A stretch of 64,000 nucleotides of DNA, taken from sequence record NC_134263.1; one strand, 5' to 3'. Below the pieces are notes generated by a model. The model ran no database searches and was not told the origin of the DNA. It was given only the letters and a program-made list of their open reading frames with translations. Of the stretch, positions 814 through 59,347 are shown one piece after another (the first letter of the stretch is position 1; every line of letters begins with the position of its first letter). The DNA comes from Escherichia phage T5_ev219. The position numbers and the translations under genes are program-made.

Positions 814-1358
814 TTATTAAGTTCCTCTATTGGTGGGTAATAGTTGGTATAGAAATCTTCTATAACTGCTTCGCTACCATGAAGTGTTTTTCTTAGTTTA
901 TTAGCCTTTATGACCGCACTTTCTAGGTCTAAGTAGTCAAAAACACCCCCGTAAATATTTTTACCATTATTATCAATCACCTGTACTTGCCATTTCTGTA
1001 GTTGTTTGTTCCAGTGTACACCTAGATATCCAGATTTACTCGATGTGGTACAATTTCTGTTATTAGACTGGCTTGTAGCTTCTCTTAGATTTATCCACCT
1101 ATTATCTGACCTAATTCTATTTTTGTGGTCTATTAAATCAGGTATTGATCCTGTCATATATAGAAAGGCTAACCTATGCGCTAAATAATCTATTTTATCT
1201 ATCTTAATAGTTATATATCCGTCTTTTCTTAGGTATCCAGCTGGCGAACCTGCTTTTCCTCCCCTACCACGACTTACCTTATTAGTAAATATACCAGTAT
1301 CTGGATCATAGATTAGTAGTTCTTTTAATCTTTCTTGGCTAGGTAACTTTTTACTCAT
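810..1358 (-). CDS. HNH homing endonuclease (AP2-like DNA-binding C-terminus)
   Basis: HNH-like DHKNR...DNRWINLR motif; clear paralog of ORF 23411-23941; inserted between core genes. Confidence 0.7.
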   Translation of the reverse strand: MSKKLPSQERLKELLIYDPDTGIFTNKVSRGRGGKAGSPAGYLRKDGYITIKIDKIDYLAHRLAFLYMTGSIPDLIDHKNRIRSDNRWINLREATSQSNNRNCTTSSKSGYLGVHWNKQLQKWQVQVIDNNGKNIYGGVFDYLDLESAVIKANKLRKTLHGSEAVIEDFYTNYYPPIEELNK

Positions 1359-3207: not shown

Positions 3208-4349
3208 AGGAAATCTCCAAATTCATTGCCCAGATCTTTCAGAGTATCAGTAGAGGTCTCAGTTACCTGACCTACACGGTAGGCTGCACCAATCTGGATT
3301 TCTTGTGGAGCAGGCTGTAGAGAAGTAGTATCCAACCAGTTCATAATCCACGGAATAGGGTTTTTGGTGATTACTGGTAAATGACCAGGCCATTCTACAC
3401 CGATGTGCATAAATGCATTACGCCCCACAAAGTATAGGTATTCTTCTAGAAGTTCTGCATTCAAGCCAATCAGACTACGACCTTTGAAAATGAAATGACC
3501 CCATTCAATTTCAGTTTTCAGAGTTTTCAAGAGCTGTGCTGGTGCTTTAGCCACTGCTTCATCTACCAGATCTTTGTCAAACTGCTGGAACATGATCTGG
3601 ATGATTGCTTTAGACATCTGGGTGTGTAGAGCTTCATCTTTAGCGATTAATTGCAGATTTTTAGCAATACCTTGCAGAATATCGTTCTCTGCTAATGCAA
3701 AGGTACATGCAAAGGATGCGTAAAACTGCATTGCTTCCAGACCATAGATCGCAAAGTAAGCGTCTAATAGTTTAGCCTGAGTTTCACGTTTAACTTCAGG
3801 GAACTCAGTTTCTGGATATGTATTGTCGCCACGATGATCGCGTACTGCGATGAAATACTGACCTAACTGGTACAGTTCATCGAATAGTTCAACAGAATCA
3901 GCGATGCGCGCGAATGCTTCTTGGTTTTTGGTTACAGAATCAATAAATTCTGCTGGATCAGTCAGCACATTACGAATAATATTACTATATGCACGGCTAT
4001 GCAGATCTTCGAAGTAGCTCCACTGCTTGAGCATACCTTCCAATTCTGGGCGACTTACAAGTGGCATAATAGCTGCTTCAGGAGCACGACTGATAAAGGA
4101 ATCAGTTTGAGTTTGCCATGCTAAGTTCAGGAGTGTAATTTCCTGAATTTCTCGTGGGAGATTAGGCCATTGTTTCTTATCTGCTTCCAGACTGATTTCA
4201 GTTTCAGTCCAAAATTGAGAGCGTTGCAGAAGTGCCAGACGTTCTAGTTCTGGATGTGCTACACGTACATAATCTGCGATACCGAGAGAATCTCCCAGGA
4301 AAAGGTCAGCGTTAGTATGATCCCAATTCAGGTTTAATAAAGTAGTCAT
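3204..4349 (-). CDS. nrdB: ribonucleotide reductase class Ia beta subunit
   Basis: 381 aa; ferritin-like di-iron radical protein pattern; adjacent to nrdA. Confidence 0.85.
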   Translation of the reverse strand: MTTLLNLNWDHTNADLFLGDSLGIADYVRVAHPELERLALLQRSQFWTETEISLEADKKQWPNLPREIQEITLLNLAWQTQTDSFISRAPEAAIMPLVSRPELEGMLKQWSYFEDLHSRAYSNIIRNVLTDPAEFIDSVTKNQEAFARIADSVELFDELYQLGQYFIAVRDHRGDNTYPETEFPEVKRETQAKLLDAYFAIYGLEAMQFYASFACTFALAENDILQGIAKNLQLIAKDEALHTQMSKAIIQIMFQQFDKDLVDEAVAKAPAQLLKTLKTEIEWGHFIFKGRSLIGLNAELLEEYLYFVGRNAFMHIGVEWPGHLPVITKNPIPWIMNWLDTTSLQPAPQEIQIGAAYRVGQVTETSTDTLKDLGNEFGDFL

Positions 4350-10725: not shown

Positions 10726-10888
10726 TCCAGAAAACATACTTATTGAGCAATGGAACTTTGGTTATAATGCTGGTGTAGCTACTTGTATTGCTAGATTGGA
10801 TATGCTTATTAAGCAAGAAAAGGTGCGTCCGGAGGAAGCAATTTTACTCCGAAATATTATCGAAGGATTTAAGCAAGGAATCGTATAG
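10694..10888 (+). CDS. hypothetical protein
   Basis: ORF track; GAGGAG RBS; stop overlaps next start. Confidence 0.45.
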   Translation: MDFLNQNLKSNPENILIEQWNFGYNAGVATCIARLDMLIKQEKVRPEEAILLRNIIEGFKQGIV

Positions 10889-11712
10889 TGCGTAGATTAA
10901 TTATTATTAGCGGTGCGGGTTTGAGTGTTGAAAGTGGTGTACGAGCTTTTCGTACTGATACTGCTAGTGGTAAAGCATTGTGGGATGATTATGATCTAGA
11001 AGAAGTATGTAATATTCATGCCTTTCGTGGTAATTTTTACCATAAAACCCATATGTTTTACAACAAGCGACGTGAAGAGCTAGAAACTGTTGAACCTAAC
11101 CTTGCGCATCTTCGTATTGGTGAGTGGTATAAGAAATATCCGGGTCAAGTAGTAAATTTGACTACTAATGTTGATGACCTTATTGAGCGTGCTGGTGTTC
11201 CTCATAATGATATTCTCCACATTCATGGATACTTAAAGGAGGTTGTTGTAGCTGATAGCTACAATAGTAGTAATAAACGAATTATTGATGTTGGGTATAA
11301 CTCTATTGACCCAGATGATTATAAATGGGCTAAACCTAATGTAATCTTCTTTGGTGAGCATGCTCCAGCGTACGCAGAAATGTACAATATTTTTGATGGT
11401 ATTACTAGTCAAGATATGATCGTTGTAGTTGGTTGCTCTAATCAAGTAATTAATTTCTACTGGGAATTATTTCCTGTTCTTAATTTGACTGCTGCTAAAC
11501 TTATGGTTGTTAACTACTACGATAGTGCCCTAGCGGCAGAACCAGGCTATCAAGGTATGACTCGTAGTGATATGTACCAGTTGGAAGAACGGGGTATTCC
11601 TTACTGGAGTAAAGGTGCGGTAGATGCTTTCAGTGATCCTGGTTTTATCGCTCGTATAGAAGCTCATCTAGAGGGTAGACCTTATATGCAGGGGGAACAG
11701 ACATGTCCATAG
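10888..11712 (+). CDS. Sir2-like (sirtuin-family) NAD-binding protein lacking the Zn-ribbon module
   Basis: GTG start; sirtuin motifs GAGLSVESGVRAFR, TTNVDDLIERAG, HIHG, VIFFGE, VVVGCSN; no CxxC pairs. Confidence 0.6.
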   Translation: MRRLIIISGAGLSVESGVRAFRTDTASGKALWDDYDLEEVCNIHAFRGNFYHKTHMFYNKRREELETVEPNLAHLRIGEWYKKYPGQVVNLTTNVDDLIERAGVPHNDILHIHGYLKEVVVADSYNSSNKRIIDVGYNSIDPDDYKWAKPNVIFFGEHAPAYAEMYNIFDGITSQDMIVVVGCSNQVINFYWELFPVLNLTAAKLMVVNYYDSALAAEPGYQGMTRSDMYQLEERGIPYWSKGAVDAFSDPGFIARIEAHLEGRPYMQGEQTCP

Positions 11713-19145: not shown

Positions 19146-20117
19146 ATGACTAATGTAAAAGAATTTATTAAACGCTGTCAAGAAGCATATTATCAGGGTA
19201 TGTCTTTAATCTCTGATGAGGAGTATGATTGCCTGGTAAAACGCTTCCCGTTAGAAGAAGAGATCGGGCCTAGGGGTGATATTCCACATCTGTATCGTAT
19301 GTATTCTTTACAGAAAGTTTACTATAACCGTGGAGATAAATCACCATTCAATCCTTTAGGTCAGGTGGAAACCGATAAGTTAGATGGTTGTGCAATTTCT
19401 CTGCTATATATTAATGGCGAATTTGTTCAAGCATTAACCCGTGGTAATGGTATTCTGGGGAATGATGTCACAAGCAACGTAAGATTGCTGAACATTCCTA
19501 AAAAGATTTCCCAAAAAGTACCTACTCAAATCACTGGTGAAGTTCTAATTACAAAAGAAGTAGAAAATAAACGTAACTTTGCCTCTGGTGCTATTAACCT
19601 CAAAGATAGTGATGCTTTCGTACAACGTATTGGAGAAGGTGGTTTAATCTTCGTTGCATACGGTATCCAGTGTTCTGCTGAATCTGTAGGTATTACAGAA
19701 GCATATTTAAAAGATATGCTTTGGCTGGAGAATGAGAACTTCTTAACAGTTGTTAATGTGCGTTCCTTCTTTAAATGGATTCCGACGGACGGTAAAGTTG
19801 TTCGTATTAATGACAACAACAAATTCTTCCGTGAAGGCTGGACTAATAAATTCCCTCGTGGAGCATTCGCCATTAAAGAGGATGAAGAAGGCGAGATTAC
19901 AACTCTTACTAAAGTTGAATGGCAGGTAGGGGCTTCTGGTAAAGTAACTCCAGTCGGTTATTTTGAACCAGTAATTATTGATGATGCTACAATTGTTAAA
20001 GCGACTCTTAATAACGTTGATTATATTAACTCTCTTGATCTAGAGATCGGTTGCCAGATTCGAGTGATTCGTGCTGGTGGTGTAATCCCGTGCATAGTAG
20101 AGCGAGTATACGATTAA
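19146..20117 (+). CDS. ligA: NAD-dependent DNA ligase, N-terminal subunit (adenylation + OB domains)
   Basis: KxDG adenylation motif (ETDKLDGCAIS); 323 aa. Confidence 0.8.
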   Translation: MTNVKEFIKRCQEAYYQGMSLISDEEYDCLVKRFPLEEEIGPRGDIPHLYRMYSLQKVYYNRGDKSPFNPLGQVETDKLDGCAISLLYINGEFVQALTRGNGILGNDVTSNVRLLNIPKKISQKVPTQITGEVLITKEVENKRNFASGAINLKDSDAFVQRIGEGGLIFVAYGIQCSAESVGITEAYLKDMLWLENENFLTVVNVRSFFKWIPTDGKVVRINDNNKFFREGWTNKFPRGAFAIKEDEEGEITTLTKVEWQVGASGKVTPVGYFEPVIIDDATIVKATLNNVDYINSLDLEIGCQIRVIRAGGVIPCIVERVYD

Positions 20118-20319: not shown

Positions 20320-21099
20320 ATGAAAATCGAAATTCCAACACAATGTCCCTCTTGTGGTTCTAAGCTAGATCTTGTCAACGGACAATTATTCTGTCGTAAT
20401 AAGTCCAACTGTCCAGCGCAATCAAGTAAGTTAATTGAGAACTTCTGTTCAAAAATGAAGTTAAAGGGTTTTGGCCCAAAAACTATTGAGAAGCTGGAGC
20501 TGACGAAGATTTCAGAACTATTTTACCTAACCGAAGAAGATTTGGTTAGAGCCGTGGGTAGCAAGGTTGCCGCTAAGTTAATTAGCGAATTAAATACTAA
20601 AGTTCGCGGAGACATTGACTTTGGTTCAGTTCTCGGTTCTTTAGGAATCCCTCTAATCGGAGAGGTTGCAGCAAAGAAATTATCCCAAAATTGCACTAGC
20701 TTCCACGATGTGAAGGCTGACGGCAAGGCTGGAGAAAACTATAAAGCCTGGCTAAATTCCCCACAGGGCAAGGATGTTATCGAATTACCGTGGAAATTCA
20801 CAACTGGTATTAAAGGTGCTAAAGCTGAGGTCATCATCACTGATGGTCTAGTAGCCCAACCAAACGGAATAACGGTATGTATTACCGGATCTTTGCAAGA
20901 TTTTGCAAATAGAACGGATGCAACAAACTATTTAGAAGGTCTAGGATATACGGTTAAGAAATCCGTTACCAAAGACGTCAAATACCTAATCTGTGAGGAT
21001 GAATCTAAGCGTTCTTCCTCATCTTATAAGAAAGCCGAAACGAATGGGATAGAAATCCTGTCGATTAAAGAACTATTGGAGAAAAATAATAATGTCTAA
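20320..21099 (+). CDS. ligB: NAD-dependent DNA ligase, C-terminal subunit (Zn-finger, HhH, BRCT-like)
   Basis: Four-Cys zinc finger CPSCG...CRNKSNC; ORF track TTG 20317 adjusted to ATG 20320 with AAGGAAG RBS. Confidence 0.8.
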   Translation: MKIEIPTQCPSCGSKLDLVNGQLFCRNKSNCPAQSSKLIENFCSKMKLKGFGPKTIEKLELTKISELFYLTEEDLVRAVGSKVAAKLISELNTKVRGDIDFGSVLGSLGIPLIGEVAAKKLSQNCTSFHDVKADGKAGENYKAWLNSPQGKDVIELPWKFTTGIKGAKAEVIITDGLVAQPNGITVCITGSLQDFANRTDATNYLEGLGYTVKKSVTKDVKYLICEDESKRSSSSYKKAETNGIEILSIKELLEKNNNV

Positions 21100-21941: not shown

Positions 21942-23414
21942 ATGACCTTGTTTAACGTGCAAGCTGTAGTGTTGAAGATGCTTCTAGCTTCAGAACAGAA
22001 GCAAATAGCATTGGAAACATTCTCAAAACTGCATAAAGATCATTTTAATGACGCTTTCTCCTCAATTTACCAAGCCGTCCAGAATTATTATAAAAAATAT
22101 AACACAATGCCGTCCATTGACGCACTGATGCTTGAGGCTAATAGGAACGCCCGCCTTTCTCAAGCTCTAGTCGTTTTAGCTAACACTCAAATTCCAGAAG
22201 TTAGCATGGAACAGGCACTTGAAGTCCTAGAGGCCGAGTATACACAGGATTTATTCCTGAAGCTTCTAGAAACAGACGTGCTTCAAGATTTAACAATGCT
22301 GGATCAGGGAGAAATTCTTAACCGAGTTGCCTCCCTTCACTTAAAATTAGAAGAGAAAGTAACGAATACTGGAAAAGTATTCAACGCAGATAACATGCGT
22401 ATTTTCCAGAGAGAAGAAGATACCAAACTGAACTTAATCGCTCTTGGTATTTGTAATGAGTTCGACGCTCAAATTGGTTTAGCTCGCACAGAAACGTTAC
22501 TGCTTGGTGGTTGGCGTGGTACTGGTAAATCCATTATCTGTTCAAACATACAGGTTCAGCAATATTTGAATGGAGATATTGCTCCATACTTCTCAATTGA
22601 GATGAAAGAACATGAAGTATTTAGACGTAATCTAGCCATGTTAGCTGGTGTATCAGCACTAGCAATGCGTAATAATACTCTAGAAGGTGCAGCTCTGTTG
22701 AGATTAGCCAGAACTAGAGCTAGGATGTTTAACGGTGGTGAAGAGCTTTTCGATAACTTCGTTAAACAGTACACAATGGCTAAGATGAGTGATTTCTACG
22801 ATATGGAAAGTAAGCTAATAGAAGGGTATGAACTACATACTCCTATGATTATTGTTTATGATCCTGAGCTGTCTATTACAACAGTTGACGTAGAATTAAA
22901 TAAATTAGTTGCTAGATATGGTGATAAAGTTACAGTAGCTTTACTTGACTATATTAACCAAACCCGACTTCCAGATTCTAAAACCATTGATATGTATGAC
23001 TGGAAAGAACAGATGGTTGTTAGCTCGTCTTTCAAATCTATCTGCCAGAAACATAACGTGGCTGGTGTAGCTCCTTACCAGATTGATCAAGATGGTAGAA
23101 CACGTATGTCAAAGGGGATTCTTGATTCCGCAGACATGGCTGCTAATCTTAATGCTGCAAAAGCTGATAATGGTCAAGGTGCTATTATGTTTGACTTCGT
23201 TAAGACTCGTTCTTCTGATAGTGTGAAGTTTATGCCTAAAATGAACTGGGAAACCCTACGGATGGATAACACTACCAACCTAGCAATGGAAGATATATCT
23301 CAAATGGAAGCTGAGTTCGTTATCCCTATTGAGAAGGATAAGCCGGCTCAATCTAAACGTGCTAAGAAAGACAAAGCTGAAAATTCAACAGGTGAACAGG
23401 CCAGCGATATATGA
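21942..23414 (+). CDS. DnaB-like replicative helicase
   Basis: Walker A GGWRGTGKS, RecA-like core; ORF track start 21891 lies inside the terminator hairpin, so ATG 21942 with AAGGAG RBS preferred. Confidence 0.7.
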   Translation: MTLFNVQAVVLKMLLASEQKQIALETFSKLHKDHFNDAFSSIYQAVQNYYKKYNTMPSIDALMLEANRNARLSQALVVLANTQIPEVSMEQALEVLEAEYTQDLFLKLLETDVLQDLTMLDQGEILNRVASLHLKLEEKVTNTGKVFNADNMRIFQREEDTKLNLIALGICNEFDAQIGLARTETLLLGGWRGTGKSIICSNIQVQQYLNGDIAPYFSIEMKEHEVFRRNLAMLAGVSALAMRNNTLEGAALLRLARTRARMFNGGEELFDNFVKQYTMAKMSDFYDMESKLIEGYELHTPMIIVYDPELSITTVDVELNKLVARYGDKVTVALLDYINQTRLPDSKTIDMYDWKEQMVVSSSFKSICQKHNVAGVAPYQIDQDGRTRMSKGILDSADMAANLNAAKADNGQGAIMFDFVKTRSSDSVKFMPKMNWETLRMDNTTNLAMEDISQMEAEFVIPIEKDKPAQSKRAKKDKAENSTGEQASDI

Positions 23415-23941
23415 TAACACAGGAACGACTAAAAGAACTGTTTGACTACTCCCCAGAGACTGGGGAGTTTACTAGAAAAGTATCTAGAGGCAATCAGAAA
23501 GCTGGTAGTATTGCGGGTACTCTAGATAGTGGATACATACGGATAAAGGTAGATAGAAAATTATACTTTGCACACCAACTAGCCTTCCTATATATGGAAG
23601 GATATATGCCAGAGGAAGTAGACCATATTAATCGAATTACTTGGGATAATAGATGGATTAATATTAGGCCATCCACCCGGCAAGAAAATAGCAGAAATAA
23701 AACAGCTAGAAGTAAATCTGGATACTTGGGAGTTTTCTGGTTTAAGCGGGATCACAAATGGCATGTAAGAGTAGTAAATTCTATGGGAGAAAAAGTTCAC
23801 GGTGGGCTCTTTAATTACGCAGATCTAAAGCTTGCAGTCACTAAAGCCAATGAACTACGTCTACAATTACATGGAGAAAATGCTGTTCAAGAGATCTTTG
23901 ATCCAACTAAGTATCCTTCACTGGAGGAGTTAAATTCATGA
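23411..23941 (+). CDS. HNH homing endonuclease (paralog of 810-1358)
   Basis: Colinear similarity with 810-1358 protein (FT.KVSRG...AH.LAFLYM...DH.NRI..DNRWINIR); sits between helicase and primase. Confidence 0.7.
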   Translation: MITQERLKELFDYSPETGEFTRKVSRGNQKAGSIAGTLDSGYIRIKVDRKLYFAHQLAFLYMEGYMPEEVDHINRITWDNRWINIRPSTRQENSRNKTARSKSGYLGVFWFKRDHKWHVRVVNSMGEKVHGGLFNYADLKLAVTKANELRLQLHGENAVQEIFDPTKYPSLEELNS

Positions 23942-30568: not shown

Positions 30569-30574
30569 TAAATA

Positions 30575-30599
30575 GAGGGGCTTCGGCCCCTTTCTTTTT
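30575..30599 (+). terminator. rho-independent terminator
   Basis: ggggc ttcg gcccc hairpin then TTTCTTTTT. Confidence 0.75.
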
Positions 30600-30604
30600 A
30601 ACCA

Positions 30605-30916
30605 ATGAGAATATTATTTAGTGCTGATCATCATATCAAACTAGGACAAGATAAAGTTCCAAAGGAATGGCAGAAGCGTCGTTTCCTGATGCTAGGAGAA
30701 CGGTTAAATGATATATTCCATAATCATAACTGTGATCTTCATATTGCTGGTGGTGATATTCTTGATGTTGCCGACCCGTCGTCAGAAGAAATAGAACTGC
30801 TTGAACAGTTCATGTCAAGACTTGACCACCCAGGTAAAATCTTTACTGGAAATCATGAAATGTTAACTAAAACGATTTCATGTCTATATCATTATGCAGG
30901 AGTTATAATAAGGTAA
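30605..30916 (+). CDS. SbcD/Mre11-like nuclease, N-terminal part (frame-disrupted)
   Basis: Phosphoesterase motifs DHH, GDILD, GNHE; ORF ends at 30916 while homology continues in the -1 frame. Confidence 0.6.
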   Translation: MRILFSADHHIKLGQDKVPKEWQKRRFLMLGERLNDIFHNHNCDLHIAGGDILDVADPSSEEIELLEQFMSRLDHPGKIFTGNHEMLTKTISCLYHYAGVIIR

Positions 30917-31581
30917 CGAGTGGTAAGTGGGAAGTAATTACCAAACCATATCGTTCCCCTGAATTTGATATTGTTCCGTATGATGAGATCCATAAATCCA
31001 AATGGAAACCGTCTGAATCAAAACTATGTTTCACGCATGTTCGTGGTGAAATCCCTCCACATGTAAAACCAGAAATTGATCTAACTAAGTATAACTGTTA
31101 TGATACTGTAATTGCTGGCGATTTACATTCTTATACTAATAGCCAGACTATCGGATCTACTAGACTTCTCTACCCAGGGTCTCCATTAACTACAACGTTC
31201 CATAGAGAACGCACAAAAGGTACAAATGGTTGCTTTATCGTTGATACCGACACATTAAAAGTAGAATGGATTGAACTAGGTGATTTACCACAACTGATTC
31301 GTAAAACAATCGGAGCCGGTGAAGAGATGGAACCTAGTGATTATGATCGTGTAGTCTATGAAGTTACTGGTGACGTTGTTCAATTAAAGTCTATCAAAGA
31401 CTCTGATTTATTAGATAAGAAGATTAACCATCGAGTTACTAAAGACGCTAAGTTAAATCTTGTTGATCTTGATATGTTAGGTGAACTTGAACTTTACTTC
31501 CGTGAAGTCGAGAAGCTATCTCAAGGCGACATTGATAGAATCTTGGCTAGAGCTGCGAAATATGTCAAAGATTACAATTAA
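30880..31581 (+). CDS. SbcD/Mre11-like nuclease, C-terminal part (frame-disrupted)
   Basis: Continues nuclease motifs (VIAGDLH, PGSPL); frame open only from 30871. Confidence 0.6.
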   Translation: MSISLCRSYNKVTSGKWEVITKPYRSPEFDIVPYDEIHKSKWKPSESKLCFTHVRGEIPPHVKPEIDLTKYNCYDTVIAGDLHSYTNSQTIGSTRLLYPGSPLTTTFHRERTKGTNGCFIVDTDTLKVEWIELGDLPQLIRKTIGAGEEMEPSDYDRVVYEVTGDVVQLKSIKDSDLLDKKINHRVTKDAKLNLVDLDMLGELELYFREVEKLSQGDIDRILARAAKYVKDYN

Positions 31582-33400
31582 GACACTAAAATTTAGTAAC
31601 GTTATGTCTTACGGTAAGGACATCGTAATTCATTTCGATAAGAATCCAGTTACTCAACTAATTGGTGGCAATGGGCTGGGGAAATCCACCATCGCTACGG
31701 TTATCGAGGAATTGTTTTATAACAAGAACTCACGTGGTATTAAGAAGGATGCTCTGTTCTCCTGGTCTACTCCGAAAAAAGAGTATGATATGCACGCTTA
31801 CTTCTCAAAAGATGAAGATGAGTATGAATTGCATAAAGTAGTTAAATCCACTGCTAAAGTAACCCTTATTAAGAATGGAGAGGATATTAGTGGACACACG
31901 GCAACCCAAACATACAAGATGATTGAAGAGATTATGGGTGGTGACTTCCAAACATTCACCAAACTGATTTATCAATCGGTGGGTTCCAATCTAGATTTTC
32001 TAAAGGCAACGGATGCAACACGTAAGGCTTTTCTTGTTAACTTGTTCAATCAAGAACAGTACAAAGAAATGTCAGAAACTATTAAGGCTGATCGTAAAGA
32101 AATAGCAAATACCTTAAATAATTTGCAGGGCCAAATGGCTGTAATTACGAAAATCCTTAATGGAAAGAATAATCTGGGAACTTTGCAGGAACCTGTAGAA
32201 GTACCGGAGTTTGATGAAGAGCCATTAGCACAAGAACTTACTGAATCGAAAATTAAGGCGGCATTAGCCAAGTCTCAAGAGGCTAATATTACTAAATTGC
32301 GTAATTTGGACAAAGCTGTACAAGTTGCCGAACAATCTTTCGAACCTTTCAAAAATTTACCCGCGCCCACCGACCAAAATGAAGAGATCTCGAGTGTTAC
32401 GCGTGACCTAACGATTGTGACCTCACGTGCGGGCGAAGTTAAGAAACGTTATCAGAAGTTCAAGCAAGAGGCTTCAAATACTGAATGCCCTACTTGTGGT
32501 ACTCATCTAGATACAACTGCTGCTCAAAAAGCAATGGATATGGCTAGAATAGAATATGATCCTTTGTTCAACGAGAAGCAATCTCTTGAAGCTAAGCTAG
32601 AACAGTTGAAGAAAGAACAACTTGAGTACGTTGCGTATACTAGAGCAAAGGATGCTTTGGATAAAGCAGTGGTAGCTAGAGACGAGTTCAAAAATTCAAT
32701 GAGTGATGCTTCTTTTGAAGAACTCAATGTGCAAATCCTACAGGTGCAAATCCGACAATTAGAACAGGAAATCGCTGATGGCCGCTCTAAGGTTGCAATT
32801 GCTAAAGAGCATAATGCAAATGTCGAATTAGCCAATGCAAAATATAAAGCGAAACTAGAACAGATTGAGAAAGCTGAGGCAGAAATGTCTGAGATTACTT
32901 CCAAACTGGATGAGGTATCAGAAGCTGTTGCTGATCTCGATATTCTGATTGCTGCTTTGAAAAATCTGGTGGGATATAAACTAGAGCATAGTGTGAAAGT
33001 ATTTGAAGAACTAATTAATAAATACCTTTCTATTATGACTGGTGGTAAATTTGCACTTGGATTTGAACTTGATGAAACAAAATTACAAGTAGTAATCTTC
33101 AATGATGGAAACCGTACCAGTATGGAGAATTGCTCTACTGGTCAGCAAAGTCGAATCAACCTAGCAACTCTGTTAGCTATTCGAATGCTACTAACATCTA
33201 TTAGTAAAGTTAATATTAATCTTCTATTCCTTGATGAAGTAATTAGCTTTATTGATACAAAAGGACTTGATACTCTAGTTGAATTATTAAATGAGGAAGA
33301 AAGCCTAAATTCTATCATTGTTTCTCACGGGCATACGCATCCATTAGCCCATAAGATTACTGTTAAAAAAGATGCAGAAGGATTTTCCTACTTAGAATAA
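31562..33400 (+). CDS. SbcC/Rad50-like ATPase
   Basis: Walker A GGNGLGKST, central coiled coil with CPTCG zinc hook, signature SGQQSR, Walker B LLFLDEV; start trimmed to MSKITIKTLKF. Confidence 0.85.
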   Translation: MSKITIKTLKFSNVMSYGKDIVIHFDKNPVTQLIGGNGLGKSTIATVIEELFYNKNSRGIKKDALFSWSTPKKEYDMHAYFSKDEDEYELHKVVKSTAKVTLIKNGEDISGHTATQTYKMIEEIMGGDFQTFTKLIYQSVGSNLDFLKATDATRKAFLVNLFNQEQYKEMSETIKADRKEIANTLNNLQGQMAVITKILNGKNNLGTLQEPVEVPEFDEEPLAQELTESKIKAALAKSQEANITKLRNLDKAVQVAEQSFEPFKNLPAPTDQNEEISSVTRDLTIVTSRAGEVKKRYQKFKQEASNTECPTCGTHLDTTAAQKAMDMARIEYDPLFNEKQSLEAKLEQLKKEQLEYVAYTRAKDALDKAVVARDEFKNSMSDASFEELNVQILQVQIRQLEQEIADGRSKVAIAKEHNANVELANAKYKAKLEQIEKAEAEMSEITSKLDEVSEAVADLDILIAALKNLVGYKLEHSVKVFEELINKYLSIMTGGKFALGFELDETKLQVVIFNDGNRTSMENCSTGQQSRINLATLLAIRMLLTSISKVNINLLFLDEVISFIDTKGLDTLVELLNEEESLNSIIVSHGHTHPLAHKITVKKDAEGFSYLE

Positions 33401-58246: not shown

Positions 58247-58698
58247 TATAAGAACCTTGCGAATCCTGATTTTATTTCAGTCTTGACTTGTGTCTTTTCT
58301 TGAGGATTCTGTAATTTGTCTTTCTGCTTTTGAACCCACACTTTTTGCTTATTAGCAGAAAATAAAGGAGGTTCTTTCGTGTAAACCTTATGTAATAGTT
58401 GGTGATGGTGCTGGCACAATGTTACCACGTCCCTAACTAACTCATGCTCATATTTCTTGTAGAATGCTTCCCTATTTGAAAGGACGATATTCTCATCAGT
58501 GAAATCCAGCTGGAGTTCTTTAGCAAATTTTTTTATTAGCTGAGATATAGTATGATAGTGATGAAGTTCTAGGTCTTCACTACTACCACATATAGCACAG
58601 CAACCATCCTTACTATACCTAGATTTTATACCATCCCTCATTATGGAAATGGCATCACGTTTGTACTTAGTATTAGTGGCCATACTCCTCCAATCCAA
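58246..58698 (-). CDS. HNH endonuclease
   Basis: Cys/His-rich HNH motif CAICGSSEDLELHHYH...CQHHHQLLH. Confidence 0.65.
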   Translation of the reverse strand: MDWRSMATNTKYKRDAISIMRDGIKSRYSKDGCCAICGSSEDLELHHYHTISQLIKKFAKELQLDFTDENIVLSNREAFYKKYEHELVRDVVTLCQHHHQLLHKVYTKEPPLFSANKQKVWVQKQKDKLQNPQEKTQVKTEIKSGFARFL

Positions 58699-59347
58699 AG
58701 CTACTTAGAAAGATTACTATATCCTCAGGAGCAACATTAAAAAATTCCGTGCTTCCTGTAAAATTAGAAAACCCACAGTTTTTATTATAATATTCTCTGT
58801 GAACTTCCTTTTCTAAATCTAAAGCAGTCTCTCTATCTGGCAGATGATACATGGTGAACAAGTATAGGTCAGAAAATCCAGATTCTCTTTTAACTTCATT
58901 CAACCGTTTCTCAGGGTATAAGCTTATGCCTACTTTAGTACCACTAGAGGAGGACATGATATAGAGGAATCCGCCATTCTCCCATTTAAGAGAACAATAA
59001 GGACATCTCTTACCTTGAGTCAATCCATCTAAGGTAATGAAACAGTCATGCCCATTATTGCAGCGTAGATGTAGTTTTGTTTTAGCATTAGTATAGCTGC
59101 TTAACAGAGTATACCCTATATTAGATATTCTGTTACTAACTTCATCTAACGATATTGTATTATTGGAGCAGTGTGGACAACCTCTCCTCATATGGAGTAT
59201 AGAATGTGGTGTTGCTTCCCAAACGTGTGCTCTCTGGCATTTAAATACTGTTTTTGTACGTTGGTTTACATATTCACCGACAATTTGGATTCCACGATCA
59301 GCTAATCTAATATTTATATCTTTTATTGTTAGCTTTTGTCGACCCAT
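58673..59347 (-). CDS. putative homing endonuclease (zinc-ribbon N-terminus, GIY-YIG-like core)
   Basis: CxxC...CPHCS and CPYCS ribbons; GFLYIM...KVGIS...RLNEVKR resembling GIY-YIG; TAGGAG RBS. Confidence 0.45.
   Translation of the reverse strand: MGRQKLTIKDINIRLADRGIQIVGEYVNQRTKTVFKCQRAHVWEATPHSILHMRRGCPHCSNNTISLDEVSNRISNIGYTLLSSYTNAKTKLHLRCNNGHDCFITLDGLTQGKRCPYCSLKWENGGFLYIMSSSSGTKVGISLYPEKRLNEVKRESGFSDLYLFTMYHLPDRETALDLEKEVHREYYNKNCGFSNFTGSTEFFNVAPEDIVIFLSSFGLEEYGH

Follow-up and report, generated by a model that had tools for sequence, protein, structure and literature searches.

A Single Missing T Divides the SbcD/Mre11-Like Gene D12 between Two Reading Frames in the Genome Record of Escherichia Phage T5_ev219

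Organization of the D12 Locus

The window, that is, the whole 64,000-nt stretch of the T5_ev219 genome that was analyzed (NC_134263.1), shows the usual T5-type arrangement at this locus: D11 - terminator - D12 - D13 - D14 - D15. At the place of D12, two overlapping open reading frames (ORFs) are present. The features of the locus are the following:

30576-30591, plus strand: GC-rich hairpin and T-run (GGGGCTTCGGCCCC TTTCTTTTT) between D11 and D12, recognized from the sequence and from the annotation of relatives
30605-30916, plus strand: ORF of the D12 N-terminal fragment, 103 aa, with motifs I-III (DHH, GGDILD, GNHE)
30871-30913, plus strand: interval in which both frames are open, delimited by the TAA positions and devoid of a slippery heptamer
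30880-31581, plus strand: ORF of the D12 C-terminal fragment, 233 aa, in the -1 frame, with GDLH, PGSPL and the C-terminal helices
30905-30907, plus strand: the lesion, one T missing; codon 101 reads ATA, compared with ATT followed by AAT in all relatives
31562-33400, plus strand: D13, the SbcC/Rad50-like ATPase partner, 612 aa, intact, assigned by tblastn, profiles and an exact protein match

In HASG4 and EASG3, the identical hairpin and T-run carry the annotation of a transcription terminator (locus positions 1677-1692, corresponding to 30576-30591 of the window). The first ORF encodes native residues 1-101, with DHH at residues 8-10, and then runs out of frame for two residues (Ile-Arg) before a TAA. 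The second ORF opens with nine out-of-frame residues (MSISLCRSY), after which native residues 102-325 follow, N102 lying at 30907. The offset between the two ORFs, (30880-30605) mod 3 = 2, puts the second in the -1 frame relative to the first. Its frame is closed upstream by a TAA at 30868-30870, and the first ORF stops with the TAA at 30914-30916; hence, both frames are open only between 30871 and 30913. The 233-aa translation is an exact match to the deposited T5_ev219 protein VUF55621.1, named 'SbcD'. This is the only product of the gene in the depositors' annotation: the 103-aa ORF is absent from the protein collection.

Several other genes of the window differ from JLBYU40. A 101-aa HNH endonuclease gene, located between D11 and D12 in JLBYU40, is absent from the window (30569-30604). 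Its HNH_3-type relatives (~51-54% identical) are encoded at 23411-23890 (plus strand), between the replicative helicase and primase genes, and at ~864-1358 (minus strand), a pattern that points to a variable content of homing endonucleases around replication genes. A 224-aa ORF (58673-59347, minus strand) with a treble-clef zinc finger (DUF4379) and CapR and T5orf172/MUG113 (GIY-YIG-like) domains sits between an HNH nicking-endonuclease gene and the large terminase gene, where JLBYU40 has ~115 nt; it is probably a mobile insertion of the homing-endonuclease type. Finally, the SIR2-family protein of the window (~10888-11700, plus strand) is aligned by residues 1-267 only of the 278-aa JLBYU40 protein, and its C-terminal end differs.

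Identity of the Split Gene

The split gene is the ortholog of T5 D12 (T5.127), an SbcD/Mre11-like nuclease. When the JLBYU40 D12 protein was compared with the window by tblastn, residues 1-108 matched in frame 2 and residues 102-325 in frame 1 (30907-31578, 99.1% identity). The profile of PHROG 100 (SbcD-like subunit) is also matched in two parts, positions 29-121 by the first ORF (E = 4e-14) and positions 135-374 by the second (E = 2e-45); the intact ortholog gives E = 2e-63. The two ORFs are thus parts of a single gene rather than neighbors by coincidence. The first ORF additionally matches Pfam Metallophos with 29 bits, against a cutoff (gathering score) of 21.5.

All the motifs of calcineurin-like phosphoesterases are present: DHH, GGDILD and GNHE in the first ORF, and THVRG, GDLH and PGSP in the second. 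The motif columns are at least 90% conserved in an alignment of 35 sequences. In all relatives examined, these catalytic motifs lie on one continuous polypeptide, whereas in the window they are distributed over two. Sequence motifs, profile, fold (seen through a 74%-identical homolog) and gene neighborhood all agree with the Mre11/SbcD family.

D12 of HASG4 (YP_011558018.1) and of VEc33 (YP_009853056.1) is orthologous and occupies the corresponding position; it agrees with the window gene in its motifs, its PHROG 100 assignment and the 20 nt by which it overlaps D13. Motif V reads GDLH in the window, while GHxH is usual in the Mre11 family. The identity to solved SbcD and Mre11 structures is ~15%, and the length is 325 aa, compared with ~400 for SbcD. 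Moreover, the polypeptide is interrupted in the window and continuous in SbcD, Mre11 and T4 gp47. These nucleases of the Mre11 family work together with partners of the Rad50 family, such as SbcC and gp46. What D12 shares with E. coli SbcD, Mre11 of archaea and eukaryotes and T4 gp47 are the phosphoesterase motifs, the Metallophos match and an adjacent Rad50-like gene; T4 gene 47 is also listed as PHROG 100 in the CRISPRi-ART annotation table.

The adjacent gene, D13, is matched in a single frame by its JLBYU40 ortholog (tblastn, 98% identity) and is recognized by PHROG 77 (E = 5e-133) and by AAA_23, SMC_N and SbcC_Walker_B. Its product is identical to VUF55627.1 of T5_ev219, and its start overlaps the 3' end of D12 by 20 nt, as in relatives. 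The activity characteristic of the family is that of a Mn2+-dependent nuclease in complex with the ATPase. In protein clusters built at 90% identity, the cluster holding the D12 proteins P0001-P0017 also contains 612-aa D13 proteins, one of which is the representative; this mixture may stem from gene calls that are fused or overlap.

The Missing Base

Alignment across the site reveals a difference of one nucleotide. The relatives read GTT ATT AAT AAG (V100 I101 N102 K103), and the window reads GTT AT- AAT AAG. The base lost from codon Ile101 is the bracketed one in GTTAT[T]AAT, so that a single T is left at 30906, and the 325-aa ORF of the T5 D12 orthologs is broken up into two overlapping ones, 103 and 233 aa long. 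VEc33, HASG4 and SP15, the closest relatives at the locus (99.5%, 98.9% and 97.4% identity, respectively), have GTTATTAAT at the site and one 978-nt CDS each. In an alignment of 33 D12 genes, the site is the sole gap column and the sole state private to the window. The missing T is also the only nucleotide difference between the window D12 and that of HASG4, and the D12 of EASG3 is identical to the window gene with the T restored. For comparison, the best match to the window over 25 kb in the phage collection searched is 95.4%.

As read from these alignments, the two-frame layout is the result of a single missing T in an otherwise normal D12, in this genome record alone. An old pseudogene was rejected as an explanation: D12 is otherwise identical to HASG4 D12 and has no second lesion.

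Most of what a sequence-only reading of this DNA had proposed is in line with these results. It had described an SbcD/Mre11-like nuclease gene split across two frames, which the ORFs, the motifs and the tblastn and PHROG pieces bear out, and it had placed the shift between 30871 and 30913, the only interval where both frames are open; the two TAA codons delimit this interval as described, and the shift can now be assigned to the single T at 30906. The SbcC-like partner downstream, D13, is intact, as it had stated. The alignment with D12 orthologs from T5-like phages, which it had suggested as a check, gives one T missing compared with all relatives.

Occurrence of the Split among Related Phages

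No other phage was found with this arrangement. An 80-nt query across the site matched 116 phage records, all of which span 81 nt and none of which is 100% identical. The 27-mer that contains the deletion occurs in no IMG/VR contig, and in each of the 28 loci retrieved from IMG/VR, codon 101 is ATT and the 325-aa ORF is intact. With the intact D12 as the tblastn query, 907 Demerecviridae records were matched, from Tequintavirus to phages of Vibrio and Proteus at ~48% identity. At least 80% of the query was covered in one place in 902 of them, and D12 was in a single piece in 59 of 60 rows sampled evenly from the 907. Homologs from metagenomes (45-74% identity) likewise consist of one chain, of ~315-330 aa, and their alignment is continuous through the break. 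Both the 233-aa protein and its restored 325-aa version are found in NCBI phage records only, with no independent copies in metagenomes or Logan assemblies. Among the records described here, no recurrent D12 split was encountered in other phages.

One apparent second case, SUT_E420 (OQ990039.1), was rejected, as this partial genome has a scaffold gap of 300 N inside the gene. The D12 pieces found by tblastn (residues 1-156 and 132-325) extend across 1152 bp at 601-1752 of the locus; the fetched locus is 2,352 bp long, including the 300 N, and an 84-aa fragment is all that is annotated. The D12 proteins of S126 and of several Vibrio phages (P0011, P0013, P0063-P0069) are 295-298 aa long, begin at Met29 and lack motif I (DHH). 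These are probably differences in start-codon annotation and not truncations.

At the level of the deposited sequences, these comparisons show the lesion to be a one-off, evolutionarily instantaneous, non-programmed deletion of a single base.

Position of the Break in the Protein

The break was located on a structure model of an intact homolog and not of the window protein. This homolog (P0018) is 74% identical and has the same numbering up to the break. The AlphaFold model of P0018, built from the alignment of 35 sequences, has a mean pLDDT of 93.9 and a pTM of 0.82. Searched with Foldseek against the PDB, its top 50 matches are all SbcD or Mre11 (E = 3e-12 to 2e-9), which confirms, for the predicted fold, the assignment to the SbcD/Mre11 family.

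In the model, the break (I101|N102) falls between motif III (GNHE, residues 82-85) and the next strand, within a short helix that spans residues 98-104 (block pLDDT ~97). As modeled, it thus interrupts an ordered helix in the catalytic core rather than a linker. The two fragments part metal-binding motifs I-III (N-terminal) from motifs IV-VI (C-terminal), and the capping domain and C-terminal helices are on the C-terminal fragment. Judging from the established architecture of Mre11 and SbcD, neither fragment alone would have a complete two-metal site.

Recoding and Two-Piece Expression

A gene read in two overlapping frames could still be functional. Through a low-level -1 ribosomal shift near AUA-AUA-AGG-UAA (30905-30916), a near-native full-length protein with the substitution N102I would be made; alternatively, residues 1-101 and 102-325 would be translated separately and assemble non-covalently into an Mre11-like nuclease. 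The two ORFs do jointly hold every native residue. Rare codons of E. coli, AUA and AGG, directly precede the stop of the first ORF, and T5-like phages carry their own tRNA genes, which weakens the idea of hungry codons. The ATG of the second ORF at 30880 is in frame, 34 nt upstream of the stop of the first, so that termination-reinitiation is conceivable; however, there is no Shine-Dalgarno-like sequence in the 20 nt upstream of this ATG.

A split enzyme is not foreign to this genome: the NAD-dependent DNA ligase is encoded by two genes, for subunits A and B, at 19146-20114 and 20320-21096 (plus strand), ~200 nt apart. These are annotated as two genes in JLBYU40 too, in contrast with the D12 split, which is unique.

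With programmed -1 frameshifts, like that of the tail-assembly chaperone G/GT, the locus shares the two overlapping ORFs and the -1 frame of the second. It does not share the slippery heptamer, the stimulatory structure or the conservation of the layout. In agreement with the sequence-only reading, no canonical heptamer of the form X XXY YYZ exists in 30860-30916, nor does a relaxed one. The 83 nt downstream (30908-30990) fold with a minimum free energy of -15.4 kcal/mol, which is unremarkable (z = -0.59): 57 of 200 shuffled sequences are at least as stable. A programmed -1 frameshift was therefore rejected, none of its three hallmarks (slippery heptamer, downstream structure, conserved layout) being found. 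Transcriptional slippage was rejected as well. The only homopolymer of at least four bases in 30860-30916, and the longest one considered for the overlap, is AAAA at 30869. A naturally split two-gene enzyme was discarded because no relative is split, no Shine-Dalgarno sequence precedes the ATG at 30880 and the break is inside a helix.

The strongest argument is that D12 matches an intact ortholog at every position but one: no recoding signal can have evolved in the time available, and selection for frameshifting or for two-piece expression is not possible. With the two-frame arrangement found in no relative and the break inside an ordered helix of the catalytic core, it is highly improbable that the gene as deposited is functional by either route.

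Four explanations had been offered at the outset: an assembly indel, a real inactivating mutation, a regulated frameshift and a two-polypeptide nuclease. The first two are retained and discussed below. The regulated frameshift fails on the lack of a slippery site and of a notable structure and on a split unique to one genome, and the two-polypeptide nuclease on a break that cuts an ordered helix of the catalytic core, with no split relative.

Origin of the Missing Base

T5_ev219 is a Tequintavirus with a genome of 110,393 bp (LR597655.1), isolated from the fecal virome of a one-year-old child. It was purified by two plaque streaks, amplified by confluent lysis and sequenced on a MiSeq. The reads were assembled with SPAdes ('--only-assembler --meta'), and only assemblies were deposited. 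[quoted passage not shown]

We lean towards an artifact of the deposited consensus, to which we give about an even chance. The T may have been lost in an assembly run without read-error correction or polishing, or at the trimming and re-joining of overlapping contig ends to reset position 1. An off-by-one at the re-join would cost exactly one base whatever the surrounding sequence, a mechanism that is itself conjecture and counts to that extent against this explanation. The phage would then make an ordinary 325-aa D12, forming with D13 the phage Mre11-Rad50-type nuclease of recombination and repair. An artifact would fit a singleton lesion in a gene kept as one ORF throughout the family, in a sequence assembled by SPAdes without error correction or described polishing and with ends trimmed manually. 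It would also fit the lack of decay, the T being the only difference from HASG4 D12, and a break inside a helix of the catalytic core in the P0018 model.

On the other hand, bases are rarely dropped from a high-coverage Illumina consensus except in long homopolymers, and this T belongs to no more than a TT dinucleotide. The assembly is otherwise clean. When the CDSs of JLBYU40 (three loci, annotated complete) were compared with the window, ~68 orthologs were found across 1-64,000, and all of them except D12 are in a single frame. A generally error-ridden assembly, with indels of the nanopore type, was rejected for this reason.

The same two facts, a TT context that is not error-prone for Illumina and the intactness of the other genes, speak for the other explanation: the deletion is real and very recent, having arisen in the infant gut or during plaque purification and amplification, and D12 is a null allele. 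This reading is tentative, its probability falling somewhat short of even. Translation would yield an N-terminal stub of 103 aa and perhaps also some of the C-terminal fragment, started from the ATG at 30880. Plaques would still form, D12-D13 not being strictly needed on the laboratory indicator strain, with host nucleases perhaps covering for it. The two rounds of plaque purification imposed bottlenecks able to fix a real mutation, and the 233-aa product is the one that the depositors annotated.

A parallel is offered by EASG3 (MK373799.1), a close Tequintavirus in which D13 is split into ORFs of 281 and 327 aa by a 4-bp deletion (TTGC/TTAC after CAAAAAT; locus ~4158-4162, equivalent to window ~32356-32359). 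This lesion and that of the window D12 are both singleton frameshifts, and they affect the same nuclease operon of two genes; in EASG3, however, the coiled-coil region of the ATPase is hit and not the nuclease, and four bases are deleted and not one. The sibling phage HASG4, identical over the first 2.7 kb compared, is intact. A 4-bp deletion is hard to blame on base-calling, which argues against an artifact and hints that loss of the complex is tolerated in culture.

T5 D12 was originally defined through amber mutations with a conditional-lethal phenotype, and in T4, normal DNA synthesis requires gene 47, whose mutants show DNA arrest. On this basis, a true null would be costly, which favors an artifact over a real null allele. 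D12 is, moreover, a single ORF in the other Demerecviridae genomes examined, down to 48% amino acid identity, indicating strong purifying selection, and D12 of the window has no second lesion and no signal of relaxed selection. In the CRISPRi-ART screen of T5, by contrast, D12 is scored 'Semi-Fit' and D13 'Not Fit', in favor of a tolerated null and against an artifact. However, the tail genes D16 and D17 are also 'Not Fit' in this screen; it thus has many false negatives and is weak evidence for dispensability. Concerning the essentiality of D12, this screen was the only relevant literature found, the papers on Hachiman, retron Eco2, BF23 and AKFV33 containing nothing relevant.

Significance

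The D12 split is nothing new in kind: it is an assembly error or a trivial strain-specific knockout. D12-D13 is a known and conserved phage nuclease of the Mre11-Rad50 type, and the split concerns a single base in a single genome. The public record already reflects it, as only the 233-aa product is annotated as SbcD, and LR597655 deserves a curation flag at this position. If the phage itself lacks the T, T5_ev219 and EASG3 would be ready natural nulls of D12 and D13, respectively, and the pair could be used to test how far T5-like phages depend on their own Mre11-Rad50 complex. Should the allele be both real and null, it would indicate, together with the D13 frameshift of EASG3, that Tequintavirus phages can form plaques without their Mre11-Rad50 complex.
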